From Escherichia coli (GTDB taxonomy: Bacteria; Pseudomonadota; Gammaproteobacteria; Enterobacterales; Enterobacteriaceae), in assembly GCF_044324875.1 (NCBI RefSeq), contig NZ_CP172185.1: DNA of 64,000 bases; one strand, 5' to 3'. The notes below the pieces were generated by a model. It was not told the origin of the DNA. It made no database searches and worked only from the letters and a program-made list of their open reading frames with translations. Below are positions 2,781 through 29,125 of the stretch, piece after piece. The stretch's first letter is position 1; the number at the start of each line of letters is the position of its first letter. Both the position numbers and the translations under genes were made by a program.

Positions 2781-3644
2781 CTAATCGTCTATTTCGGAAA
2801 CCTTCTTATTCAGCAGACGAGAAGCGCGCCAGTAAACCAGCAACATCAGGCCCATTACGATAGTCAGCGTAATGCTGGTGGCTGCACCAAACGGCCAGTC
2901 ACGAATATTGAGGAACTGTACCTTGATGACGTTACCGATCAGCAGGTTTTTCGCACCGCCCATCAGGTCGGACACATAGAACAGGCCCATCGCTGGCAGC
3001 ATCACCAGCAGACATCCGGCAATAATTCCCGGCATCGTCAGTGGGATAATGATGCGGATAAAGGTCTGCAACTTGCTGGCACCGAGATCGCGCGCCGCCT
3101 CAAGCAACGGCTTATCCAGTTTTTCGATACTGGAGTACAGCGGCATCACCATAAACGGTAGCAGAATGTAAACCAGACCGATAATCACCGCACTGGGCGT
3201 GAACATGATGCGAATTGGTGTATCAATAACGCCCAGCCAGAGCAAAAACTCGTTGAGATAGCCTTTGGTGCTGAGGAAAATTTTCAGCCCGTAGATACGA
3301 ATCAATGAGTTGGTCCAGAACGGAACAATCAGCAGAAACAGCAGCAGCGGACGCACCTTGTGTGGCAGCTTCGCCAGAAACCAGGCAAAAGGATAGCCCA
3401 GCACCAGGCAGGCGAGGGTGGCGATCAGCGCCATATTCAGCGAGTGCAATAGCACTTCAAAATAGAGCGGATCGAGCAGACGCGTGTAGTTATCCAGCGT
3501 AAAGACCATTTTGACGAAACTGGCGTCGTCGCGGGTCAAAAAGCTGGTGCCAATGATCATCAGGTTGGGCAGAAAGACAAACAACACAAGCCAACCGACA
3601 ATAGTGACAATCACTACATTCTGGAACTTACTTGTGTTCTTCAT
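2781..3644 (-). CDS. potB: Spermidine/putrescine ABC transporter permease PotB; the extreme C-terminus (VSEIDD) may differ from K-12.
   Basis: 287-aa ORF matching recalled PotB sequence ([29 protein letters not shown]...); overlaps potA start. Confidence 0.9.
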
Positions 3645-4764
3645 CAGCCAGTACGACCTCCCAGCTTTCTACCCAATTAATGGCCATTTTTTGGTCGAGA
3701 GAGTGGTCAAAGTCAGGATCGTCTTCATTGAAGAATTCGCTGACCATCACCATCTTGCCATTTTCCAGTTCAACAACCGACTCCAGCGTCATGCCTTTGT
3801 AGTTACGCTCGCGAACGTAACCAATCAGCCCTTCAGCGTGGTTGTCGTCGTTAATCTCTTCAACACGTAAGTCTTCCGGGCGCAGCAGAACATGCAGTTT
3901 TTGCCCCGGTTCAACGGCGAAGTTAACGTAGATATTACATTCGCGGCCTTCAACGTTGGCGCGTACGCGCTGCTCGTCTAGACGTTCGATGACAGTGGCG
4001 TTAAACATATTGATTTCGCCAATAAACCCAGCAACAAACAGGTTTTTCGGCTCTTCATAGATTTCACGCGGCGTGCCGTCTTGCTCAATGCGACCATCGC
4101 GCATCACCACAATCCTGTCCGACATGGTGAGTGCTTCTTCCTGGTCGTGAGTCACGAAGACGAATGTAATGCCAAGCTTACGCTGTAACGCTTTCAGCTC
4201 GTTCTGCATTTGCTTGCGCAGTTTGTAATCCAGCGCTGAGAGCGACTCATCCAGCAACAACAGACGAGGCTTGTTAACCACTGCGCGGGCAATGGCGACG
4301 CGTTGCTGTTGACCACCAGAGAGCTGATGCGGTTTGCGTTGAGCGAAGGTTTCCAGCTGCACCATCCGCAGGGCTTCCATCACGCGGGGCGTAATTTCAG
4401 CAGCGGGGGTTTTTTGCATGCGTAACCCAAAGGCCACATTTTCGAACACGGTCATGTGGGGGAAAAGTGCGTAGCTTTGGAAAACAGTGTTCACATAGCG
4501 GTTTTCCGCCGGAACGTGGGTGATGTCCTCGTTATCCAGCATGATGCGTCCGGAATCAACAGTTTCCAGACCTGCAATCAGGCGAAGAACGGTTGTTTTA
4601 CCGCAGCCAGAAGGGCCAAGCAGCGTGAGGAACTCGCCATTGTTGATAGTCAGATCCAGCTGGGGAATGACCTCTTTACCATCAAAGCATTTGCGAATTC
4701 CCGCCAATTGCACCAGCGGTGAAAGCGAACTCGGTTGTTTATTCAATTTTTTACTCTGTCCCAT
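3628..4764 (-). CDS. potA: Spermidine/putrescine ABC transporter ATPase PotA.
   Basis: 378-aa ORF with Walker [13 protein letters not shown] signature LSGGQQQR and Walker B LLLLDE. Confidence 0.95.
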
Positions 4765-7611: not shown

Positions 7612-7637
7612 CGGTGTAGTTAATGGTGTAGTTAATT
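7612..7637. repeat. attL core of the integrated element: CGGTGTAGTTAATGGTGTAGTTAATT, itself a tandem GGTGTAGTTAAT duplication.
   Basis: Identical 26-mer at 18721–18746; a further ~45 bp upstream of each copy is imperfectly similar. Confidence 0.65.
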
Positions 7638-8888
7638 GTGATGACCGGATTCAAAATTATGAGCAGAGCACTTAACAAGCTGAGCGATACACAGCTAAGG
7701 AAAATCAACGGCACACCCGCCCAAAAAACAGCCTTTCTTAATGACGGTGGAAACTTGAGCGTCAGGCATTCAACCAGCGGCCTTTTAACCTGGTATTTCA
7801 CTTACAGGGCCGGAACGGGAAGGGGGGCATCACCGGAACGCATTAAGCTGGGAAATTATCCTGATCTGAGCCTGAAATCAGCCAGGGAAAAAGCCGCCCA
7901 GTGTCGCGCATGGCTGGCTGAGGGGAAAAATCCACGTCATGAGATGAATTACACCGTACAGGAAGCGTTAAAGCCTGTAACGGTTGGCGATGCGCTCACC
8001 TACTGGCTTGAGTCGTACGCAAAGGAAAACCGTGTGGATTATGACCCACTGAAAAAGCGGCTAAATAATCACGTAATACAGCACATTGGCCCTATGCCGC
8101 TGGATAAATGCGAGCTACGGCACTGGCTGGCCTGTTTTGATCGGGTGGCAAAGCAAGCCCCTGTTTCCGCCGGGTTCCTGCTACAGACATGCAAACAGGC
8201 GCTTAAGTTCTGCCGGAAGCGGCGCTATGCAATCAGCAACGTTCTTGATGATATGAGTGTGGCTGACGTTGGGAAAAAACCGGATATAGGCGAACGTGTC
8301 TTAAGTACCAAAGAACTGGGCGAATTATTGCAGGCACTGGACAAAAAAATATTTTCCCCTTACTACGTCGCACTAATCCGCCTCCTGATTGTTTTCGGAT
8401 GCCGGACAGTAGAACTGAGGTTATCGGAGATCGGCGAGTGGGATTTTACCGAAATGCTCTGGACCGTTCCGAAGGAGCACAGCAAAACGAAGGTAGCCAT
8501 ATTCCGGCCCATACCGGAAGCGATACTGCCGTTCGTCACGCAGCTGATGGAGCAGAACAGGCACACGGGCTTATTGCTGGGGGAAGTGAAACAGGAAACC
8601 AGCGTGTCGCAGTACGGCAGATTAGTGCACAGGAGGCTTAAACACCCTCACTGGTCACTGCATGACATCCGGCGCACCTTTACAACGATGCTGAACGATT
8701 TAGGCGTGGATCCTCACGTCGTGGAGCAGCTTACAGGCCACCAGATGCCAGGAATGCAGCGAGTTTATAATCATTCCCGTTATCTGGATGCGAAACGCAA
8801 TGCGCTGGATATGTGGACGGAGCGGTTAGGGATACTGGCGGGAGCACATGAAAACGTAACCACGCTACCAGTAACCAGAAGAAAATAA
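7638..8888 (+). CDS. int: Tyrosine-type site-specific integrase (P4-like family).
   Basis: Starts immediately after attL; C-terminal catalytic region ...LHDIRRTFTTMLNDLGVDPHVVEQLTGHQMPGMQRVYNHSRYLDA... (R, H-x-x-R, Y). Start ambiguous: GTG 7638, ATG 7641 or ATG 7659. Confidence 0.85.
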   Translation: MMTGFKIMSRALNKLSDTQLRKINGTPAQKTAFLNDGGNLSVRHSTSGLLTWYFTYRAGTGRGASPERIKLGNYPDLSLKSAREKAAQCRAWLAEGKNPRHEMNYTVQEALKPVTVGDALTYWLESYAKENRVDYDPLKKRLNNHVIQHIGPMPLDKCELRHWLACFDRVAKQAPVSAGFLLQTCKQALKFCRKRRYAISNVLDDMSVADVGKKPDIGERVLSTKELGELLQALDKKIFSPYYVALIRLLIVFGCRTVELRLSEIGEWDFTEMLWTVPKEHSKTKVAIFRPIPEAILPFVTQLMEQNRHTGLLLGEVKQETSVSQYGRLVHRRLKHPHWSLHDIRRTFTTMLNDLGVDPHVVEQLTGHQMPGMQRVYNHSRYLDAKRNALDMWTERLGILAGAHENVTTLPVTRRK

Positions 8889-8936
8889 TTTTTTTCGTGT
8901 TTTTTCAGTATGCGCATACTGGATAAGTGCACAGAT

Positions 8937-8970
8937 ACAACGTGAAACAATAAGCAACAACGTGAAACAA
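8937..8970 (+). promoter_or_regulatory. Two direct CAACGTGAAACAA repeats, candidate integrase arm-type binding sites.
   Basis: The same motif occurs inverted beside attL (7583–7598, CTTGTTTCACGTTG) and beside attR (18681–18700, TGTTCCACGTTGTTTCAT). Confidence 0.4.
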
Positions 8971-9262
8971 CCACGAACAAGAGGTCAAAAAGTATACAGA
9001 TTTATAAGTTGCTGATTTTTAATGCTCAACTGGTTTTTTATACATTAGCGAATAACGCTTTAAATAGTGAGAAAAAAGTCATAAAACGAGATTTTATGCC
9101 TTTGCATAATACTGAATTAAAATGATTTTTATTAAAATCACCCCGTTTCTGTAAAATACCCGCCACCAACATTTGCCAACTCTGAATCACCCTGACACAA
9201 TCAGACACATCCCAACGCAATAGAACACGAAATAACTCTTTAAGAAACGAAAGGGGGCAATA

Positions 9263-9451
9263 GTGTTAAGCACTGATCGGTTTATACGTGAAAAAGAATG
9301 CGAAAAGCTAACAGGCCTTAGCCGCTCATGCCGCTACCGCCTGGAAAAGGCCGGACAATTCCCATCACGGCGTAAGCTGGGCGGTCGTTCCGTTGGCTGG
9401 TCTTTATCCGAAGTTCTGGCATGGAAGGAAAGCTGCGAGGCAGTTCACTAA
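9263..9451 (+). CDS. alpA: AlpA-family phage transcriptional regulator / excisionase-like HTH protein (62 aa, GTG start).
   Basis: MLSTDRFIREKECEKLTGLSRSCRYRLEKAGQFPSRRKLGGRSVGWSLSEVLAWKE matches the AlpA/CP4-57 regulator pattern; sits just downstream of int. Confidence 0.75.
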   Translation: MLSTDRFIREKECEKLTGLSRSCRYRLEKAGQFPSRRKLGGRSVGWSLSEVLAWKESCEAVH

Positions 9452-9777
9452 AAAGACTGGCGGCACACAGCCGCCACCCATCCACTAATACAGAGATTTA
9501 ACCATGAAGACTGGATATACGCCCGAACAGGGGCGGGGCTTCGTTCGGCCTGGTGAAACTGAAAAACAACAAAATCGCGGTTTTTCAGGCATAAAAAAAG
9601 CGGCCCCGATAAGGAGCCGCCTTTCTGAACAATTAACCTACAGCGCAAAAAATGAATCTGAGCAGTGGGATTATATCAACCGTGCAACGAAGCGCCACAA
9701 TTGCCGGATAACGGGCAAAGAAAAGGCCACCTGTCACGGTGGCCAATGTGATCAGTGTGGTGGCTTGCTGGTGGCTA

Positions 9778-11347: not shown

Positions 11348-11635
11348 ATGAAAAATAAAAATTCTGGCGTTAATGCCAGCGGCCCCGCTCGTCCTGAAAT
11401 CCGTCCCGGCGATATTTTCCGTGATAACTACGGCGGCACGGTAATGATTAAGGGCGTGGAAGAACGGCGCGTAACCTACCGCCGTGATGGCTACGAATAT
11501 GACTGCGTTATGCCTGTTTATCAGTTCCGGCGTGATTTCACGCTGGTGGGCCATCGTAAAGCCGTTAATCAGAAACGTGCTGCAAGTTATATCCGCAAAA
11601 TCCGTGAAATGCTGGTCGCAGGGGGTAAGAAATGA
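11348..11635 (+). CDS. Hypothetical protein (95 aa), overlaps the replication gene start.
   Basis: Intact ORF; stop overlaps the start of the next gene (ATGA-type coupling). Confidence 0.55.
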   Translation: MKNKNSGVNASGPARPEIRPGDIFRDNYGGTVMIKGVEERRVTYRRDGYEYDCVMPVYQFRRDFTLVGHRKAVNQKRAASYIRKIREMLVAGGKK

Positions 11636-13038
11636 AACTTGCACCGAACGTAAAACTGTTACCGAAAGATAAACACACTGAGGCGGTTATTTTTGCGGGT
11701 GATAATGCTCACTCCTTTGCAGAACATTACATGATTGCACAGGCCAAAAAAGCAGGCGATCCCATCCCTCCGGTTTACCTGGGCCGTTATCAGTTAAGCG
11801 AACTGGACAACTTACAGATTGTTGATGAAGGACGATACAGGGCAAAGGTCATACGCGCCGGAAACCTGGACGATATGCAGATGCTGACCATTGCCACAAA
11901 ACTGGCGATCGCCGGAGTCCAGGAGGCGCGCCTACTTTCTGAAAATTTCGAACTGCTGGAGGACTGGAGCGACCAGCTACCACGACTACGGGAAACATGG
12001 GAGAGAGGGGAAAGCCTGGTCATGAATGGCGGAAAGCGAAAAATCACACTTCCCATCTCATGGGGTTCTGAGGGATTCGATGCGCAGCAAAGCTACGTCA
12101 TTAAGGGGCTTATTCCGGCTGAGTCATTATGCAGCACCTACGGGGCCAGCGGTTCTTATAAATCGTTCCTCGCCATTTCCTGGTCGTGCCATGTTGCCAC
12201 AGGTATGGCATGGGGAGGCCGCAGGGTAAGTAAGGGTGCGGTTATCTATATCGCTGGCGAAGGCAGCATGGGCGTAAAACGCCGCGTTAAGGCGTGGGAG
12301 ATAACCCACGACAAGGTGGTTACAGATTTGTGCATCATTAACGCGCCTGTTTTCCCTGCATCGCCTGACTATGTGGAGCAGGTTATCAGGACTGCCGGAC
12401 TTGTTAAGAGCAGAACGGGCGAAAATGTGCGGCTGATTGTGATCGACACGCTGGCCCGTTGCTTTGGTGGGAATGATGAAAATGATTCCCGTGATATGGG
12501 CGCATTTATCCAGGGGTGTGACGCGATAAAGCAGGCCACAGGGGCCACGGTGCTGGTGGTTCACCATTCCGGCAAGGATGAAACAAAGGGGGCGCGTGGT
12601 TCCAGTGCATTCCGTGCCGCGCTTGATGCAGAGTACCGAATCAGCCGCGAAAATTCAGACGTTACAGCACTGGTCGCAGCATGTACGAAGATGAAGGACG
12701 CAGAGGAGCCAAAAGAGAGCGCATACGACCTTAAAAGCGTGGAGGTGTTCACCGATACAGATGGCGAAGAAATTGTGTCCATGGTGGTGATTGACGTTCC
12801 CCGCGCCCCTGCTGAACTGGAGCGCATCGAGGAGGCAGGCAACAAGACGGAAAACCATACCGCGCTATGGGGGTGCATCCGTTCACGCACACAGAACGGC
12901 GACAAGTGCACGATCCCGCTGTTACGTGATGACATGAAACGGCTTGGGTATGACGTGAAAAATATGCGGCGATGGTTAGCCAAACTGGAAAAAGACGCCG
13001 TGATTTACATTGATGGTGATGATGTAGGACCACTGTAA
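11632..13038 (+). CDS. Replication initiator / RecA-fold P-loop ATPase (RepA/AAA_25-like primase-helicase family).
   Basis: 468 aa; P-loop-like YGASGSYKSF, Walker-B-like LIVIDTLARCFGG, VLVVHHSGKDETKG; followed directly by iterons. Confidence 0.75.
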   Translation: MKLAPNVKLLPKDKHTEAVIFAGDNAHSFAEHYMIAQAKKAGDPIPPVYLGRYQLSELDNLQIVDEGRYRAKVIRAGNLDDMQMLTIATKLAIAGVQEARLLSENFELLEDWSDQLPRLRETWERGESLVMNGGKRKITLPISWGSEGFDAQQSYVIKGLIPAESLCSTYGASGSYKSFLAISWSCHVATGMAWGGRRVSKGAVIYIAGEGSMGVKRRVKAWEITHDKVVTDLCIINAPVFPASPDYVEQVIRTAGLVKSRTGENVRLIVIDTLARCFGGNDENDSRDMGAFIQGCDAIKQATGATVLVVHHSGKDETKGARGSSAFRAALDAEYRISRENSDVTALVAACTKMKDAEEPKESAYDLKSVEVFTDTDGEEIVSMVVIDVPRAPAELERIEEAGNKTENHTALWGCIRSRTQNGDKCTIPLLRDDMKRLGYDVKNMRRWLAKLEKDAVIYIDGDDVGPL

Positions 13039-13611: not shown

Positions 13612-13854
13612 ATGAAGGTAAACCACAAAAAGACAGATCACCGCGCCATTGACCTTACAGAGCACTGGCTGAGGGTGGCGATAAAAATCATCGACCGCAA
13701 CACGGGGGAAGGATACGCGAAAGCACATCCCGAACTGATAAGTGCATTCATGACCACAGCGGCGGCAAACTTTGCCACGCTGACAGAGCGGGATATTGCC
13801 GAAGCAGAACAGGTAACAACCATCAACGTTAAAACCAGTGAGGTGGAATCATGA
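13612..13854 (+). CDS. Hypothetical protein (80 aa).
   Basis: ORF whose stop overlaps the ssb-like start. Confidence 0.45.
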   Translation: MKVNHKKTDHRAIDLTEHWLRVAIKIIDRNTGEGYAKAHPELISAFMTTAAANFATLTERDIAEAEQVTTINVKTSEVES

Positions 13855-14261
13855 CAGCACAGATAGCGGCTTACGGGCGGCTGGTGGACGACCCGCAGGT
13901 AAAACAGACCAGTAAGGGTACACCGATGACGCTGGCGCGTATGGCGGTATCTTTACCATGCGGCCAGGCACAGGACGGACAGGCGACGTTATGGTTATCG
14001 GTCATCGCATTTGGCAAACAGGCCGACTTTCTGGCTAAACATCAAAAAGGCGACGTTGCCAGCGTATCCGGCACGATGCAGGTCAGCCAGTGGACCGGAC
14101 AGAACGGGGAAACGCGGCAGGGTTATCAGGTTATTGCAGACAGCGTAATCAGTGCCCGTGCGGCACGTCCTGGCGGGAACAGACGCAAAACCACAGGCAC
14201 ACAGGGTAATCAGCCACCAGCGGGAGGCGATGACCCTTACGGTGATGATATTCCGTTCTGA
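13851..14261 (+). CDS. ssb: Single-stranded DNA-binding protein homologue (short OB-fold) with a conserved SSB C-terminal tip.
   Basis: WLSVIAFGKQADFLAKHQKGDVASVSGTMQVSQWTGQNGETRQGYQV parallels E. coli SSB [48 protein letters not shown]; Gly/Pro-rich linker; ends ...DPYGDDIPF (E. coli SSB ends DFDDDIPF). Confidence 0.8.
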   Translation: MTAQIAAYGRLVDDPQVKQTSKGTPMTLARMAVSLPCGQAQDGQATLWLSVIAFGKQADFLAKHQKGDVASVSGTMQVSQWTGQNGETRQGYQVIADSVISARAARPGGNRRKTTGTQGNQPPAGGDDPYGDDIPF

Positions 14262-14271
14262 GGGGGTGACG

Positions 14272-14544
14272 ATGGTACATGACCGCATAGCGGAGGAACT
14301 CGAGGCAAAAGGATTTTACCGGAGGGCGGCGGCGCGATGGGGTGAAGTTATGAGGCTGGTGAGCACTGACAAGGAGCGCGAACAGGTGGCAATGCGACGG
14401 CTGGAATGTTCCCTGAAGGCACAGAGGCCACCGGAGCCGCCGGATGATTTAGGCGCTCTGAAAAGGTCAGTTAATCGCACTGAAAAACAAATGGGGATAG
14501 CTGGTATTGGCAAAGCAATATGGCGCAACTACCCGCAGAAGTGA
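14272..14544 (+). CDS. PerC-family transcriptional regulator-like protein (~90 aa).
   Basis: MVHDRIAEELEAKGFYRRAAARWGEVMRL... resembles the PerC N-terminal pattern; six-frame ORF 14152..14544 trimmed to the ATG after the ssb stop. Confidence 0.5.
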   Translation: MVHDRIAEELEAKGFYRRAAARWGEVMRLVSTDKEREQVAMRRLECSLKAQRPPEPPDDLGALKRSVNRTEKQMGIAGIGKAIWRNYPQK

Positions 14545-14550
14545 GCACAC

Positions 14551-14620
14551 AGCCGGAGCAATCCGGCTTTTTTACGCCTAAAAAAAGCCCGATAAGGTCA
14601 AAGGGGGCTTATCGGGCTTT
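14551..14620 (+). terminator. Two tandem rho-independent terminators ending the satellite replication/regulation operon.
   Basis: AGCCGGAGCAATCCGGCTTTTTT, then AAAGCCCGATAAGG-tcaaagggg-CTTATCGGGCTTTT. Confidence 0.6.
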
Positions 14621-14784
14621 TGTAGAGGAGGTTTTTTATGGTGCACTGGCACACATGATCGGGATAATCATTTCATAATTTGCAACATAACTCAATATTG
14701 TTGCGCAAAATGCAATCATGATTATAATCAGGACTGGATGAACATCCAGTTATGATTTTTTAAGTCAAAGAGGAATTTCTGACT

Positions 14785-14991
14785 ATGGCAGAAGAGAAAA
14801 AAGGCGGGGTGACGGTCTACATAAGCCCCGACATCGTGGAGGCGCTCAAGGAACGCCACCAGCAGAATGTAAAAGCAGGCATTGCGGCAGGACTTGATCC
14901 GCTGGCGATGGTTGAGCCGTCAACAGGCTGGCAGGTGCGTACCTATTTACGTGCGGCGCTGGGTATCAATCAGGTTCACGGAGGTGAATAA
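14785..14991 (+). CDS. Hypothetical small protein (68 aa), first gene of the head module (possible scaffold or assembly factor).
   Basis: ORF translationally coupled to the capsid gene; preceded by an AT-rich promoter region with palindromes TGATTATAATCA and TTGCGCAA. Confidence 0.45.
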   Translation: MAEEKKGGVTVYISPDIVEALKERHQQNVKAGIAAGLDPLAMVEPSTGWQVRTYLRAALGINQVHGGE

Positions 14992-16046
14992 TGACAGGCA
15001 AAGCAAAGGCACTTACAACTAACCAGCTTTTCGCGTACCTGAATCGCGGGGATATTTCGGAATATAAATTTAGTCCGCTGTTTACCACGCTGTTTTTCCC
15101 GAACGTGGCGACCTTCAACACCCAAAACATCATGCTGGACACCCTGGACATTGAAGAGGTTACGATGTCAGCGTTCTGTTCTCCTATGGTGGGTAGTCAG
15201 GTCCAGCGCGATAAAGGGTACGAAACCAGCACGATTAAACCAGGCTACATGAAGCCAAAGCACGAAATCGATCCAACAAAGACCATCATGCGCATGGATG
15301 GAGAAGATCCGGCACAGCTTAACGATCCAACTTACCGCCGTATGCGCCTGATTACTGGCAACATGCGCCGCCAGATAAACGCCATTAAGGCGCGCGTGGA
15401 ATGGCTGGCGGTGAATGCGGTAACGACCGGAAAAAACATCATTGAGGGCGAAGGCATAGAACGCTATGAAATCGACTGGAAAATACCGGAAAACTGCATC
15501 ATACAGCAGGCCAGTGGTAAAAAATGGTCCCAGCAGGATAAAGACATGCACGACCCAATCTATGACATCGAGCTTTATGCTGATCAGGCAGGTTGCCCCG
15601 CCAACGTCATGATTATGGGCGGTGAGGTATGGCGCACATTACGCAGCTTTAAAAAATTCCGTGAACTGTACGATCTTTCCCGTGGATCAGAATCCGCCGC
15701 CGAGCTGGCCTGTAAAAACCTGGGCGAAGTGGTGAGCTTTAAAGGCTATCTTGGTGATCTGGCCCTTATCGTCTATTCCGGCAAATACACTGACAGCGAC
15801 GGGACCGAAAAATATTTCCTTGAGCCTGATTTGCTGGTCCTGGGTAACACCAACAATAAAGGGCTGGTGGCATATGGTGCGATTATGGATCAGGAAGCGG
15901 TAAGAACGGGCGCAACGCAAAACATGTACTACCCGAAAAACTGGATTGAGGACGGCGATCCGGCGATTGAGTACGTGCAGACGCACAGCGCACCGCAGCC
16001 TGTACCGGCAGATATTCGCAAATTTGTTACCGTCAAAATTGCTTAA
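14991..16046 (+). CDS. Phage lambda gpE-family major capsid protein homologue.
   Basis: 351 aa; collinear matches to recalled lambda gpE: FSPLFTTLFFP vs FDPLFLRLFF, PGYMKPKHEIDP vs PGYVKPKHEVNP, DPTYRRMR vs DPAYRRRR, VSFKGYLGDLALIVYSG vs VSYKGMYGDVAIVVYSG, YYPKNW vs RYPKNW. Confidence 0.85.
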   Translation: MTGKAKALTTNQLFAYLNRGDISEYKFSPLFTTLFFPNVATFNTQNIMLDTLDIEEVTMSAFCSPMVGSQVQRDKGYETSTIKPGYMKPKHEIDPTKTIMRMDGEDPAQLNDPTYRRMRLITGNMRRQINAIKARVEWLAVNAVTTGKNIIEGEGIERYEIDWKIPENCIIQQASGKKWSQQDKDMHDPIYDIELYADQAGCPANVMIMGGEVWRTLRSFKKFRELYDLSRGSESAAELACKNLGEVVSFKGYLGDLALIVYSGKYTDSDGTEKYFLEPDLLVLGNTNNKGLVAYGAIMDQEAVRTGATQNMYYPKNWIEDGDPAIEYVQTHSAPQPVPADIRKFVTVKIA

Positions 16047-16057
16047 CGGGGGATTCT

Positions 16058-16393
16058 ATGGACGCTCCATACATTGAGTTATTTTCAGGCAGCCAACAGG
16101 TATCCACGACGCTGGTACATTTTGCCGCTGATGCTGGCGTTATTCAGGAATTTACCCCGCTGATGCTGGCAGACAATGGCGAGTTTAAGCCGTGGGATGG
16201 TAAGGAATCTGGCAAGGCTGTTTATCTGACCTCGTACCCTGTGGACACGTCAAAGCAGAAATCAGCACAGTGTTACAAGACGGGGATATTCAATATTGCC
16301 GCCGTTAACTGGCCTGACAGCGTCGACACCGATGCGAAAAAATGCGCCGCCTTTGCGGGTTCCGGCGTATCCGTTCAGCCGCTGGCCCGATAA
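16058..16393 (+). CDS. Phage lambda gpD-like head decoration protein homologue.
   Basis: 111 aa; FTPLMLADNGEFKPWDG / KTGIFNIAAVNWPDSVDTDAKKCAAFAGSGVSV parallels lambda gpD MTPLMLDTSSRKLVAWDG / [34 protein letters not shown]. Confidence 0.7.
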   Translation: MDAPYIELFSGSQQVSTTLVHFAADAGVIQEFTPLMLADNGEFKPWDGKESGKAVYLTSYPVDTSKQKSAQCYKTGIFNIAAVNWPDSVDTDAKKCAAFAGSGVSVQPLAR

Positions 16394-16467
16394 GCAGGGG
16401 GAACGATGGCACAAACCAGGGCGATGACGGCGACATCTATCGCATACTGAAAACCATCTGAGACAAG

Positions 16468-16491
16468 GCCGGAGAAATCCGGCTTTTTTTG
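16468..16491 (+). terminator. Rho-independent terminator after the head genes, just upstream of cos.
   Basis: GGCCGGAGAAATCCGGCTTTTTTT; near-identical to the 14551 terminator. Confidence 0.55.
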
Positions 16492-16499
16492 CGGGTCCT

Positions 16500-16640
16500 T
16501 TCCGGCATGTGGACCCGTTACGGGGCGTCGACCTCGCACGTTTTCGCTATTTATGAAAATTTTCCGGGAAAAAGCATGTCAGTTCTTCTTGTTATTAACA
16601 TATTGTTTTTAAAGAAATAACTATCAAGAAAGAAACGACA
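16500..16640. other. Lambda-type cohesive-end site (cosQ/cosN/cosB-like); predicted 12-nt overhang region GGGCGTCGACCT at 16523–16534.
   Basis: GTTACGGGGCGTCGACCTCGCACGTTTTCGCTATTTATGAAAATTTTCCGG is near-identical to the lambda genome ends (GTTACG|GGGCGGCGACCTCGCGGGTTTTCGCTATTTATGAAAATTTTCCGG); a downstream GAAAGAAACGACA resembles a lambda cosB R site. Confidence 0.8.
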
Positions 16641-16710
16641 TCATAATGATGAAAAATCTGTTTTTTTTGGCATTTCATGTCGTAACTGATTTTTGATAAG
16701 GAATTGCTGA

Positions 16711-17295
16711 ATGAATGTTAATAAAAAGAGGCTTGCCGAAATTTTTAACGTGGACCCGCGGACGATTGAACGCTGGCAGTCACAGGGGCTTCCTTGCGTC
16801 TCCAAAGGCAGTAAGGGCATTGAATCTGTATTTGATACTGCCATGGCAATTCAGTGGTATGCGCGGAGGGAAACTGATATCGAAAACGAAAAGCTCCGCA
16901 AAGAACTGGACGATTTGCGTGCGGCAGCGGAGTCAGATTTACAACCCGGCACCATTGACTATGAACGCTATCGGCTCACAAAAGCGCAGGCAGATGCGCA
17001 GGAACTTAAAAACGAGCGCGATCGCGGTGACGTGATTGATACAGAGTTTTGCATGTACGCGCTTTCAAAACTGGCGAGTCAGATTTCATCAATCATGGAC
17101 AGCCTCCCGCTTACTATGCAAAGGAGCTTCCCACAGATGACCCCCGCCATGCTGGATGGCCTGAAAAAAGAAGTTGTCAGAGCCTGTAACGCATGCACAA
17201 AACTTGATGAAAACATCCCGCGAATGCTGTCCGATTATCTGATGGAAACTACCGGAAATGTGCCTGATAAGTTTCAGCCGGATAAAGACAAGTAA
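16711..17295 (+). CDS. Terminase small subunit, lambda Nu1 family (TerS/Rpp-like).
   Basis: [29 protein letters not shown]...[44 protein letters not shown] tracks lambda Nu1 MEVNKKQLADIFGASIRTIQNWQEQGMPV...[44 protein letters not shown]. Confidence 0.85.
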
Positions 17296-17536: not shown

Positions 17537-17935
17537 TTGATGTGGTGGTGTCCCATGAAAATTCAAAAATCAGCCGTTTTCCGCGATGCTCCCGCCCCGT
17601 GGCAGGGCACCCCACAAGGAGGACCCGCCATCACTATGGAGGACATGACCATGACCGAGACCGAAGCGCTCGGGATAATCCGCAGTATTACCGGAATCAG
17701 CCAGCAGGCTGGCGAACAGGAGGCCACGCAGCCGGACAGCGTGATCGCCGAAAATTACGTGCGTGTTGTTGCTGATGTAATGCGCCGTGATGGTATTGAG
17801 CTTAACGGCGTGGATATGCGCGACATACGAATCAGAGTACTAGAGTTGCTGGCATACCGTCGACGCGTGGCGATGTATCAGGAGAGCGCGAAAAACACTT
17901 ATCAGTGGAAGAAGCCGGAGCGGTTACGGCGGTAA
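17537..17935 (+). CDS. Hypothetical protein (likely ~100 aa from an internal ATG near 17636, which has an RBS).
   Basis: ORF downstream of terS; no recognisable motif; ends 1 bp before the palindrome array. Confidence 0.45.
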   Translation: MMWWCPMKIQKSAVFRDAPAPWQGTPQGGPAITMEDMTMTETEALGIIRSITGISQQAGEQEATQPDSVIAENYVRVVADVMRRDGIELNGVDMRDIRIRVLELLAYRRRVAMYQESAKNTYQWKKPERLRR

Positions 17936-18720: not shown

Positions 18721-18746
18721 CGGTGTAGTTAATGGTGTAGTTAATT
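18721..18746. repeat. attR core, direct repeat of attL.
   Basis: Identical 26-mer to 7612–7637. Confidence 0.65.
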
Positions 18747-18826: not shown

Positions 18827-20287
18827 TTATTCATCTTTCGGCGCAGAATGCTGGCGACCAAAAATCACCTCCATCCGCGCACCGCCCAGCATGCTCTCTC
18901 CGGCGACGATTTTACCCTCATATTGCTCGGTGATTTCGCGGGCTACCGCCAGCCCTACACCTTGCCCAGGGCGTAAAGTATCAACCCGTTGACCACGGTC
19001 GAAAATGACCTCTCGCTTGCTTAATGGAATACCGGGGCCATCATCCTCGACCACAATATAGAGATGCTCGTCGGTTTGCCTTGCAGATATTTCGACAAAC
19101 TCGAGGCAATATTTACAGGCATTATCCAGCACGTTGCCCATCACCTCGACAAAATCGTTCTGCTCACCGACAAAGCTGATCTCTGGCGAAATATCGAGAG
19201 AGATATTGACCCCTTTGCGTTGATACACTTTGTTCAGCGCCGAGGTGAGATTGTCCAGCAGTGGGGCGACCGGATGTAGCTCGCGGCTAAGCAATGTCCC
19301 GCCGCGCATACTGGCACGATGCAGGTAGTAGCCAATTTGCTGTGAAATGCGACTGATTTGCTCCAGCATTACCGGCTCAGCATCACTGACGCTCATCTTC
19401 TCACTACGCAGAGAACGCAGCGTACTTTGCAGCACCGCCAGTGGCGTTTTCAGACTATGGGTCAGGTCGGTGAGCGTTGTACGATATTTGTCGTAACGTT
19501 CGCGTTCACTTTTTAACAATCGGTTCAGGTTTCGTACCAGACTGGTCAGTTCTCGCGTTGTGGCTGGATTGAGCAATTCGCGGTTATGTTCTTCCAGTTC
19601 GCGGACTTCTTTTGCCAGGGCTTCGATGGGGCGTAAACTCCACCTGGCGGCGACCCACAGCAGCGGGATCACTAACAGCAGATTGGCTGAGAGCACATAG
19701 ATAAACCAGCTCCAGACCATATAGGAACTTTTTAGCTCCACCGGAATGGTATCCACCACCACAATGGTCAACTTTGGCATCCGCGATGTTGCCGGGTAGA
19801 CGTTTACCGCCACCGAGTGGGTCATCTCCGCGTCGTCATCATCTTCCCGCACTTCCTGCAACTGTTGCTGTATCGAATGATCTCCACTCAGCAAGAGGCT
19901 GGTATCGTTAACATCCGCTTCAATTTCATGAAAACCATTCGATTTCAGCCAGTCAGGCTGGATCATCTTCATCAGCCAGGGCACGTCACGTTGCGCCCAT
20001 AAAAGCTGCCCGTTCTCATCATAAATTAGCGTCATAGTGGGGCTTTGCTTGTCGATATTTTCGGGTAACTCGACATGCAACTTATTGTTTTCCCACTTCG
20101 CAAGGGTATAGAACAGATTGCTCTCGCCACGTAACAGCCGAAACGTAGTTTTATCGAAACTGACGCTATAACCGATCAGCGCGACCATTCCGTAGGCAAG
20201 CGAAAGCACCAGTACAACCGCTGCCGTTGCCAATAGAAAACGTACCCGCAGCGAGAGCGGGAAAAAAAGACGCAGTAATTTTTTCAT
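18827..20287 (-). CDS. phoQ: Sensor histidine kinase PhoQ.
   Basis: 486-aa ORF; HAMP/histidine-kinase motifs ([17 protein letters not shown]); overlaps phoP stop. Confidence 0.95.
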
Positions 20288-27804: not shown

Positions 27805-27896
27805 GTAGACTGGCCCCCTGAATCTCCAGACAACCAGTATCACTTAAATAAGTGATAGTCTTAATACTAGTTTTTAGACTAGTCATTGGAGAACAG

Positions 27897-28262
27897 ATGA
27901 TTGATGTCTTAGGGCCGGAGAAACGCAGACGGCGTACCACACAGGAAAAGATCGCAATTGTTCAGCAGAGCTTTGAACCGGGGATGACGGTCTCCCTCGT
28001 TGCCCGGCAACATGGTGTAGCAGCCAGCCAGTTATTTCTCTGGCGTAAGCAATACCAGGAAGGAAGTCTTACTGCTGTCGCCGCCGGAGAACAGGTTGTT
28101 CCTGCCTCTGAACTTGCTGCCGCCATGAAGCAGATTAAAGAACTCCAGCGCCTGCTCGGCAAGAAAACGATGGAAAATGAACTCCTCAAAGAAGCCGTTG
28201 AATATGGACGGGCAAAAAAGTGGATAGCGCACGCGCCCTTATTGCCCGGGGATGGGGAGTAA
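27897..28262 (+). CDS. insC: IS2 transposase OrfA (InsC).
   Basis: [56 protein letters not shown]... Confidence 0.9.
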
Positions 28263-29125
28263 GCTTAGTCAGCCGTTGTCTCCGGGTGTCGCGTGCGCAG
28301 TTGCACGTCATTCTCAGACGAACCGATGACTGGATGGATGGCCGCCGCAGTCGTCACACTGATGATACGGATGTGCTTCTCCGTATACACCATGTTATCG
28401 GAGAGCTGCCAACGTATGGTTATCGTCGGGTATGGGCGCTGCTTCGCAGACAGGCAGAACTTGATGGTATGCCTGCGATCAATGCCAAACGTGTTTACCG
28501 GATCATGCGCCAGAATGCGCTGTTGCTTGAGCGAAAACCTGCTGTACCGCCATCGAAACGGGCACATACAGGCAGAGTGGCTGTGAAAGAAAGTAATCAG
28601 CGATGGTGCTCTGACGGGTTCGAGTTCCGCTGTGATAACGGAGAAAAACTGCGAGTCACGTTCGCGCTGGACTGCTGTGACCGTGAGGCACTGCACTGGG
28701 CGGTCACTACGGGCGGCTTCAACAGTGAAACAGTACAGGACGTCATGCTGGGAGCGGTGGAACGCCGCTTCGGCAACGAGCTTCCGGCGTCTCCAGTAGA
28801 GTGGCTGACGGATAATGGTTCATGCTACCGGGCTAATGAAACACGGCAGTTTGCCCGGATGTTGGGGCTTGAACCGAAGAGCACGGCGGTGCGGAGTCCG
28901 GAGAGTAACGGCATAGCAGAGAGCTTCGTGAAAACGATAAAGCGTGACTACATCAGTGTCATGCCCAAACCAGACGGGTTAACGGCAGCAAAGAACCTTG
29001 CAGAGGCGTTCGAGCATTATAACGAATGGCATCCGCATAGTGCACTGGGTTATCGCTCGCCACGGGAATATCTACGGCAGCAAGCCAGTAATGGGTTAAG
29101 TGATAACAGGTGTCTGGAAATATAG
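28220..29125 (+). CDS. insD: IS2 transposase OrfB (InsD, DDE domain); expressed as an OrfAB fusion by -1 frameshifting.
   Basis: 301-aa ORF overlapping orfA in the -1 frame. Confidence 0.9.

Follow-up and report, generated by a model that had tools for sequence, protein, structure and literature searches.

The locus raises the question of why a phage satellite should carry genes for a λ gpE-like major capsid protein (MCP) and a λ gpD-like decoration protein while the rest of a head operon is missing. The 64-kb window (the whole stretch of E. coli DNA that was analysed) contains an 11.1-kb island (Table 1) whose ends and gene content show that it is a classical cos-type Gram-negative PICI, an allelic mosaic variant of EcCICFT073. 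Its length falls within the roughly 10-15 kb of EcCICFT073-type PICIs; as in these, perfect direct repeats enclose the island and the integrase gene stands at its left end, and its insertion site, roxA/phoQ, is that of EcCICFT073. An alpA gene, the inducible master activator of Gram-negative PICIs (PMC6092414), and a RepA-family helicase with an SSB give it the regulator and pri/rep replication module of a cos-type PICI; relatives of the helicase carry the annotation "helicase RepA family protein", and those of the perC-like gene are annotated in RefSeq as PerC family. The 94-aa product of the last gene is 73% identical to that of the last EcCICFT073 gene and is found in 61 of 80 related loci. 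The initial annotation had called the element a phage satellite, and its integrase, alpA, helicase, SSB, PerC, cos, TerS and att repeats confirm this.

Table 1. Features of the satellite island and its right flank.
Feature	Coordinates	Strand	Basis or remark
attL	7612..7637	+	CGGTGTAGTTAATGGTGTAGTTAATT; 26-bp direct repeat, left end of 11.1-kb satellite
Tyrosine integrase	7638..8888	+	PHROG 1 integrase, E 3.4e-73
AlpA-type excisionase/transcriptional regulator	9263..9451	+	PHROG 2790, E 1.3e-17
RepA-family replicative helicase	11632..13038	+	PHROG 2850, E 1.7e-187; also PHROG 906
Single-stranded DNA-binding protein (SSB)	13851..14261	+	PHROG 44, E 1.5e-40
PerC-family transcriptional activator	14272..14544	+	PHROG 994, E 7e-41; PHROG 10396 "transcriptional activator"
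orf68, small satellite-specific protein	14785..14991	+	PHROG 3255, E 8.7e-36; conserved ORF
λ gpE-family (HK97-fold) MCP homologue, c1499 orthologue	14991..16046	+	PF03864, PHROG 29; 351 aa
gpD/SHP-family head decoration homologue, c1500 orthologue	16058..16393	+	PF02924, PHROG 49; 111 aa
c1501-like gene remnant	16406..16461	+	start codon joined out of frame to last ~50 nt
Terminator-like hairpin	16468..16490	+	GCCGG-AGAAAT-CCGGC then T7, read from sequence; closes capsid gene block
λ-like cos	16487..16640	+	cosN GGGCGTCGACCT at 16523-16534, then cosB-like region
Full-length Nu1-type TerS	16711..17295	+	PHROG 57, E 4.3e-68; occupies position of EcCICFT073 Rpp
Conserved 94-aa protein, last island gene	17651..17935	+	PHROG 1561, E 3.9e-49
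attR	18721..18746	+	right end of satellite; perfect 26-bp match to 7612-7637
phoQ	18827-20287	-	adjoins attR

An ORF and PHROG survey of the island (7.6-18.7 kb) gave no homologue of portal, protease/scaffold, TerL, W, FI or FII; tail and lysis genes are missing as well, as is characteristic of cos-type PICIs, and in tblastn searches with λ A, B, W, FI and FII as queries, no match lay within 6 kb at any of the 80 related loci. The statement that the other head genes are absent therefore holds for portal, protease/scaffold and TerL and has to be corrected for the packaging functions, since a cos and a full-length TerS gene lie just downstream. The only gpC match among the 80 relatives, in locus L027, belongs to an adjoining prophage-like segment.

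The island's cosN has one mismatch to that of λ, and the cos region is 77% identical both to λ nucleotides 1-123 and to the stretch 5' of the CFT073 icd-prophage terS; it is the helper-type cos expected of a cos-type PICI. Most E. coli genomes have cos regions that this segment matches. A second, inverted cos like cos2 of EcCICFT073 was looked for in the island and not found. The TerS protein is 71% identical over 176 aa to that of the CFT073 icd prophage and 53% identical over 180 aa to λ Nu1, and its ATG lies 188 nt from cosN, compared to 191 nt in λ. Rpp, the protein that reprograms helper TerS, is absent from the island, and because a full-length TerS gene stands in its place we assign the element to the known TerS-encoding subgroup of PICIs and not to the Rpp subgroup; Gram-negative PICIs that encode TerS had already been noted (PMC6092414). 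The length of the island is a quarter of a λ headful (4 × 11.1 = 44.5 kb).

In both EcCICFT073 and the window element the PerC gene is followed by orf68, the E-like and D-like genes, cos, the packaging gene and the 93/94-aa gene, and the trio orf68-E-D has the same gene lengths in both (207, 1056 and 336 nt), with protein identities of 93%, 95% and 96%. The two elements differ in that EcCICFT073 has a Pri primase, an intact c1501 gene, RppA and two cos sites, whereas the window has the RepA helicase, a deleted c1501, the full-length Nu1-type TerS and one cos. Other TerS-encoding E. coli PICIs (in IHE3034, Nissle 1917, O157:H7 EC4115 and O26 RM8426) also have the trio followed by cos and terS, but they carry a 180-aa TerS allele, with a median identity of 53% to the 194-aa TerS of the window, and nearly all retain the c1501-like gene. 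The cf-PICIs, such as EcCIEDL933, resemble the island in the type of their int, alpA and rep backbone and in encoding a capsid protein, but they encode everything for head and packaging (protease, portal and connectors as well as HNH, TerS and TerL) and make small capsids of their own; no portal, protease or TerL was found in the island or in its 80 relatives, and it does not belong to that group.

The identification of the first capsid gene as a gpE homologue is borne out, and its ORF, that of the decoration gene and orf68 all lie at exactly the coordinates first given. The MCP matches PHROG 29 "major head protein" (E 1.7e-108), Pfam Phage_cap_E (PF03864; E 2.3e-49), whose model it covers from position 14 to position 328 of 329, and the λ gpE chains of cryo-EM structure 7VI9 (E 4.4e-81). 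It aligns colinearly with λ gpE (42.6% identity over 343 aa) and is 45.8% identical to E of the CFT073 icd prophage. It is 95.2% identical to c1499 of EcCICFT073, of which PDB 3BQW is the crystal structure (E 4.8e-229, 95% identity), and 3BQW has served as molecular-replacement model for the HK97-fold capsid protein of YSD1 (PMC7385642); a proposed check against the HK97 fold had thus been answered by experiment, and the protein has both the full-length family match and the fold of an HK97-type MCP. The gpD claim is confirmed too. The second product is 96.4% identical to EcCICFT073 c1500 and 41% identical to D of the CFT073 icd prophage, and by profile and sequence it belongs to the gpD/SHP family (Pfam HDPD PF02924, E 1.4e-17; PHROG 49 "head decoration", E 1.2e-26; phage 21 SHP, 1TD0, E 3.4e-12; λ gpD, 1C5E and 7VII, E about 1e-8). 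Like their counterparts in λ and phage 21 the two proteins are full-length and colinear members of these families; they differ from those of λ in being just 43% (E) and 34% (D) identical, in the gene order E-D rather than D-E, and in that no head operon containing B, C and Nu3 surrounds them. The D-like protein would be expected to bind as a trimer at the three-fold sites of an expanded shell, and such a cognate partner makes sense only alongside an E-like protein whose lattice expands and offers three-fold sites.

The gene upstream, orf68, precedes the MCP gene in all 80 related loci, and its stop codon and the start codon of the MCP gene overlap (ATGA); the two genes are translationally coupled. 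The protein belongs to a narrow Enterobacterales family. It had been suggested that orf68 might be an assembly partner, but this scaffold role is unsupported: the protein has no similarity to λ or prophage head proteins and no Pfam or NCBIfam family, and its AF2 model has a beta-alpha-alpha topology (pLDDT 76) that looks more like a ribbon-helix-helix, a small DNA-binding fold, than a scaffold, although the model has no Foldseek match in the PDB at E <= 0.001 and neither reading of the fold is confirmed. A sigma-70 promoter scan around the capsid module gave fewer hits than shuffled controls.

A possible scaffold-like partner is encoded by c1501, the gene that follows the decoration gene in EcCICFT073. 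The c1501 protein gives no match in Pfam or NCBIfam; it matches PHROG 53 at E 1e-8 over profile positions 495-567 of 583 and the C-terminus of gpC at 37% over 83 aa; the E-value of this pairwise comparison should not be given much weight, the database being tiny. It thus seems to resemble the C-terminal, Nu3/scaffold end of gpC. Nearly all untruncated relatives (36 of 38) keep an intact c1501-like gene, and the window has lost it through a microhomology deletion of about 350 bp: to either side of the gap the window and CFT073 sequences align, and frame 2 of the remnant reads ...NQGDDGDIYRILKTI*, the c1501 C-terminus. Because the window allele lacks a scaffold-like partner that nearly all its relatives keep, its capsid module may be partly disabled.

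In 597 of 5426 complete E. coli genomes (about 11%) the orf68-E-D trio is annotated and matches the query over its full length; carriers include O157:H7, O145, O26 and Nissle 1917. All 33 ORFs of the trio are intact across 11 alleles, and their median dN/dS values (MCP 0.12, decoration protein 0.15, orf68 0.21) point clearly to purifying selection. The late modules are mosaic among alleles, and allele differences in the MCP concentrate in a variable patch at residues 161-192; positive selection on this patch was considered and rejected, because its pN/pS is 0.23 and its pS is raised too, as expected of a mosaic rather than an adaptive segment. Among 50,697 phage genomes no relative more than 47% identical was found, which argues that the capsid genes are not a recent capture; to judge from their sequences, the MCP and D-like genes are a satellite-specific lineage distinct from phage genes.

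The possibility, raised at first, that such genes were undescribed in enterobacterial satellites falls away: c1499 and c1500, 95% and 96% identical to the window proteins, were named as capsid and head-decoration proteins by Fillol-Salom 2018 (PMC6092414), and 21 of 29 reference Gram-negative PICIs have a major capsid gene (PMC10111431, PMC6893505). Helper induction, packaging and transfer have been demonstrated experimentally for EcCICFT073 only (PMC6092414). All the DNA it packaged was of phage size; when c1499 or c1500 was deleted, the native helper transferred the island as before and λ was interfered with to the same extent; and cat in place of c1499 gave the highest transfer (PMC6092414). 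Transfer also went up once marker size was corrected (PMC6092414), as expected if multimers are packaged from cos into full heads. We considered whether these knock-outs were confounded by their "c1501::tetA" marker disrupting the scaffold-like gene, and the supplementary primers rule this out: one arm of the marker consists of the final 60 nt of c1501 with the stop codon and the other of the sequence that comes directly after, so the marker lies after an intact c1501 and the module was intact in the knock-out strains. The pair is therefore real and conserved, yet already published, crystallised and knocked out without phenotype, and searches of the literature to 2026 turned up no function assigned to the capsid genes of classical PICIs.

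The best explanation taken as a whole, to which we give a probability of about one half, is that this is the capsid module of an EcCICFT073-type PICI and supplies accessory shell and cementing subunits for full-size helper heads. By analogy with the EcCICFT073 literature and from the anatomy of the island, a lambdoid helper would induce AlpA-driven expression, excision and replication. The island TerS, to judge by its 71% identity to a lambdoid prophage TerS and its λ-like cos-to-ATG spacing, would recognise the island's own cos and recruit the helper's TerL, and about four tandem genome copies (44.5 kb) would be packaged into full-size λ-type heads for which the helper provides portal, protease/scaffold, head-completion proteins and tails. 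The satellite's E- and D-like subunits would most likely enter helper-driven head assembly to give mixed or satellite-made full-size shells, and could make the satellite less reliant on the supply or compatibility of helper E and D; these are the least certain steps. The satellite MCP may co-assemble with or replace the helper coat protein in full-size heads. The genes would be accessory, neither essential nor size-redirecting, because the DNA that was packaged was of phage size, the deletions had no effect and the marker lay outside the module (PMC6092414); against a useful co-assembly, these deletions might have been expected to show some transfer defect. A bolder form of the explanation, in which orf68, the E- and D-like proteins and c1501 are a minimal shell kit that builds satellite-made or chimeric full-size heads on the portal of some natural lambdoid helpers, seems to us doubtful. 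If this is true, classical PICIs would stand, in evolution and in function, between the satellites that take whole capsids from their helpers and the cf-PICIs that steal only tails, and the published lack of phenotype would reflect redundancy with the three helpers tested.

The initial annotation had proposed small capsids of the kind directed by Ccm. The staphylococcal SaPIbov5, like the island, is a cos satellite with an HK97-fold homologue of the helper MCP and without portal or TerL, and it sets a precedent for size redirection, as does PmCI172, which encodes a capsid homologue and makes small capsids (PMC6092414, PMC6893505). With other helpers, the satellite MCP, perhaps with the c1501 protein, could in the same way build small one-genome heads that exclude the helper genome, and the retention of a gene resembling a scaffold C-terminus in most relatives recalls the logic of SaPI CpmB. 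But Ccm switches assembly to small capsids and blocks the helper, and in the published tests the EcCICFT073 orthologue had neither effect; Ccm has no sequence relationship to the window MCP, which moreover is accompanied by a decoration protein. The phage-sized DNA and deletions without effect leave the proposal unsupported, the rise in transfer on marker-size correction and the island length of exactly a quarter headful fit full heads instead, and the window allele has lost the scaffold-like gene. We consider size redirection quite unlikely.

Quite improbable, too, is that the proteins are poison subunits that mix into helper heads and cut the viable yield, redundantly with the packaging interference based on Rpp or TerS. 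Helper interference by classical PICIs is strong (PMC6739421), and an identity of 43-46% to helper E is in the range where mixed defective assemblies are conceivable, but λ plaques were not restored by deletion of c1499 or c1500 (PMC6092414), an effect that Rpp may mask, and a poison subunit has no need of a co-evolving decoration protein of its own.

Related PICIs integrate within helper late genes, most often in gene E (PMC10111431), and the 201 helper-embedded PICIs that sit there carry their own E, from which the authors raise the idea that the satellite's copy serves as a back-up coat for the interrupted one (PMC10111431). The satellite's E, and its D too, would then replace the helper's, and in relatives integrated in the chromosome the module would persist by frequent exchange; the mosaic late modules would fit this, as would the IMG/VR locus L027, in which 3.4 kb separate the satellite MCP gene from a gpC gene with 96% identity to that of the CFT073 prophage. 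We hold this to be very unlikely: the window element is integrated in the chromosome and not in a prophage, purifying selection is evident across chromosomal alleles, and an embedded PICI excises and so restores gene E anyway (PMC10111431).

The lack of a structural phenotype in the published deletions (PMC6092414), the resemblance of the orf68 model to a small DNA-binding protein and the clustering of allele differences at MCP residues 161-192 could suggest a role outside the virion, as decoy or trigger for capsid-sensing immunity or in regulation. We think this highly improbable, as the MCP is full length, colinear with gpE and paired with a cognate decoration protein, and the raised synonymous divergence of the variable patch indicates mosaicism. 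That the genes are functionless vestiges, left over from helper late genes once captured or from an ancestor that formed capsids, as their dispensability in the laboratory (PMC6092414) and the decay of the adjoining c1501-like gene might suggest, is scarcely tenable and already largely refuted by the selection data, the intact ORFs, the presence of the trio in so many genomes and the distance from any phage gene.

As a discovery the gene pair carries little weight, since it is known from the best-studied Gram-negative PICI, where it has been published, crystallised and put to genetic tests. What we report as new are the trio counts, the selection on the trio, its divergence from phage genes, the c1501-like fourth gene and its loss, and the cos/TerS allele. 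These sharpen a paradox: a satellite-specific pair is carried by about a tenth of complete E. coli genomes, clearly under purifying selection, yet has no known phenotype. The unannotated c1501, with its likeness to the scaffold end of gpC, offers a handle on whether satellites contribute to head assembly; if they do, this would matter for the range of helpers and for how virulence islands are transferred. We note that no helper prophage was found in the 64-kb window, which has no lambdoid prophage; 3' of icd lie IS elements, EAL-domain genes and an autotransporter gene, then IS21, hlyE and umuC.

This satellite is a cos-type Gram-negative PICI whose λ E-like (MCP) and D-like (Dec) genes encode genuine structural-family proteins under selection. 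It lies in E. coli chromosomal sequence with roxA upstream and phoQ, phoP, purB, hflD, mnmA and icd downstream, in flanks that are 98% identical to those of strain CFT073, and all of its genes but a small Arc-like ORF are co-oriented. Known GN-PICI helper prophages are located at the icd site (PMC10111431); no e14-type or lambdoid prophage is present at that site in the window strain. The terminator-like hairpins on both sides of the orf68-MCP-Dec block hint that its expression may require read-through or antitermination.

Features of the island, with its genes in order, and of the downstream region
Feature	Position	Remarks
att direct repeat, left	7612-7637	26 bp, perfect; bounds the 11.1-kb island
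Integrase gene		
AlpA-type regulator gene		
RepA-family helicase gene		
SSB gene		
PerC-family activator gene		
Terminator-like hairpins	14551-14568, 14732-14751	upstream of the block, after perC
orf68	14785-14991	68 aa
MCP gene	14991-16046	351 aa
Dec gene	16058-16393	111 aa
c1501-like remnant	16406-16461	start codon joined out of frame to last ~50 nt
Terminator-like hairpin	16468-16490	downstream of the block, before cos
λ-like cos and Nu1-type TerS gene	16487-17295	colinear with the left end of λ
Last island gene	17651-17935	94 aa; PHROG 1561 (unknown function); in 61/80 relatives; 73% identical to CFT073 counterpart
att direct repeat, right	18721-18746	26 bp, perfect; bounds the 11.1-kb island
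IS2 copy	27852-29125	downstream of icd
Adjacent ORFs	36259-37863, 37860-38558	match consecutive portions of autotransporter adhesins; apparently a single gene broken by a frameshift
IS21-family element (istB/istA)	38555-40973	directly after the split autotransporter ORFs

The MCP matches nearly the entire Pfam PF03864 model (E 2.3e-49), PHROG 29 (E 1.7e-108) and the cryo-EM chains of λ gpE (E 4.4e-81), is 42.6% identical to gpE over 343 colinear residues, and by homology is a full-length member of the gpE family. Dec matches PF02924 (E 1.4e-17), PHROG 49 and the phage 21 SHP and λ gpD structures, and by the same measure is a gpD/SHP-family decoration protein. Homologues of portal, protease/scaffold, TerL, W, FI or FII are absent from the island, and 80 related IMG/VR loci likewise lack them within 6 kb of their capsid genes. 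The initial annotation, that the satellite carries E and D homologues and lacks other head genes, is thus borne out, and we add to it the cos site and TerS gene immediately 3' of the capsid genes. The structural check that it proposed already existed as a crystal structure, PDB 3BQW ("putative capsid protein of prophage", 351 aa), which has the sequence of c1499, the CFT073 capsid gene product, and has been used as a search model in the molecular replacement of an HK97-fold capsid protein.

The gene pair and the element type are already known. EcCICFT073, the allelic model PICI of CFT073, occupies the same roxA/phoQ site and carries the same trio of 207, 1056 and 336 nt; the window orf68, MCP and Dec share 92.6%, 95.2% and 96.4% identity with its products, of which Fillol-Salom et al. 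2018 described c1499 as a putative capsid protein and c1500 as a head decoration protein (PMC6092414), so the pair is not new to enterobacterial satellites. The same authors had explicitly raised, and tested, an analogy with SaPIbov5 Ccm for EcCICFT073. The small-capsid mechanism put forward in the initial annotation is contradicted by their results with this 95%-identical orthologue: all DNA packaged from an island-carrying λ lysogen was phage-sized, deletion of c1499 or c1500 neither restored λ plaques nor changed transfer by the resident helper, and transfer was highest from an island with cat in place of c1499 (PMC6092414). Subsequent publications make the same point. The observation itself is confirmed and its interpretation partly supported. 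Ccm-like size redirection with helpers other than those already tried is unlikely, and equally so is a poisoning of the helper that interference by TerS or Rpp (the EcCICFT073 packaging protein) would mask. A later functional assignment of the capsid genes was not found in the literature up to mid-2026.

Among 50,697 phage genomes, none encodes a protein that exceeds 47% identity to the MCP. The E and D proteins of the CFT073 icd lambdoid prophage share 45.8% and 41% identity with the MCP and Dec, and the E of that prophage is itself 61.6% identical to λ E; the lineage is old and satellite-specific, not a recent capture. In the 80 related loci orf68 always accompanies the MCP gene and Dec does so in 79, and the packaging gene in the 38 loci with enough downstream sequence is TerS in 23, Rpp in 10 and neither in 5. 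In one IMG/VR locus (IMGVR_UViG_2617271340_000001) a satellite-type MCP gene (3565-4617) lies 3.4 kb from a gpC-like gene (8050-9552) that is 96% identical to the CFT073 icd-prophage gpC, which probably makes it a PICI embedded in its helper, as described in PMC10111431. A back-up coat gene, tied to that lifestyle, is a slightly less likely function than size redirection or helper poisoning.

From the EcCICFT073 work and the island's anatomy, we infer that the island would replicate after helper induction, that its TerS would bind its own cosB and recruit helper TerL, and that about four tandem copies (44.5 kb, ~92% of λ length) would fill a full-size helper-type head. Least certain is what E and D do; we favour an accessory structural role, as subunits that would join the helper-driven assembly of full-size shells, because the MCP is full length, colinear with gpE and strongly constrained, and retains a cognate decoration partner, for which an expanded lattice is the only possible binding surface. 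The identity part of this explanation is nearly certain; the whole, comprising PICI identity, packaging route and accessory role, has a probability of about 0.5. A non-structural role for two such proteins is improbable.

The trio is present, annotated and at full query coverage, in 597 of 5426 complete E. coli genomes, including O157:H7, O145, O26 and Nissle 1917. Across 11 alleles of the trio all 33 ORFs are intact, with median pairwise dN/dS of 0.12 (MCP), 0.15 (Dec) and 0.21 (orf68), and these are maintained genes; the selection data largely refute a vestigial remnant, which is very improbable. MCP allele differences concentrate at residues 161–192 (15471-15566) and at the N-terminus (residues 1–20, 14991-15050). 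Positive selection on the former patch was rejected, as its pN/pS of 0.23 and raised synonymous divergence look like recombinational mosaicism instead. The orf68 gene is tightly coupled to the MCP gene and belongs to a narrow Enterobacterales family that has no Pfam match; its AlphaFold model (strand-helix-helix, pLDDT 76) looks ribbon-helix-helix-like, and a fold search with it gave no confirming match. Prevalence, selection, lineage, architecture, allele structure and the orf68 data go beyond the earlier literature.

The remaining interest lies in a capsid module that has no phenotype yet is conserved, and in the scaffold-like c1501 (WP_000224596, 137 aa; 2084-2497 of the EcCICFT073 locus), the next gene after c1500 in CFT073, which is absent from the window and has no functional annotation in the supplement of PMC6092414. 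Its match to PHROG 53, the head-maturation-protease/scaffold family, falls at the C-terminal end of the profile (positions 495–567 of 583, E 1e-8), and an 83-residue alignment with the C-terminus of gpC from the CFT073 icd prophage shows 37% identity. In λ, the C-terminal part of gpC is the portion in common with the scaffold Nu3, and c1501 resembles this end of lambdoid gpC, a likeness newly noted here. A c1501-like gene is kept in 36 of the 38 loci with enough downstream sequence; its loss from the window is a ~350-bp deletion between 9-bp repeats (ACGATGGCA). The 99.8% identical element of strain ECCNB12-2 also has no annotated c1501-like gene. The marker name c1501::tetA raised the possibility that the published knock-outs were made in an already crippled module, which the supplementary primer table rejects: tetA was targeted with the final 60 nt of c1501, including the stop codon, as one homology arm and the region just downstream as the other, so the marker follows an intact c1501 and the published negative results stand.

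The element belongs to the TerS-encoding subgroup of cos-type Gram-negative PICIs. Its cos is 77% identical to λ nt 1–123, with 188 nt from cosN to the TerS start codon versus 191 nt in λ, and a second, inverted cos was not found in the island. The full-length TerS shares 71% identity with its counterpart in the CFT073 icd prophage, 53% with Nu1 and only ~53% with the common PICI TerS allele, which suggests that the packaging module was recently swapped with a helper-like phage. We note that the element of E. coli JNE151685, which also lacks c1501, has a terS that equals the window's in length (585 nt) and is annotated on the strand opposite to its capsid genes (4129-4713 of that locus); this may reflect inversion of the cos-terS segment.
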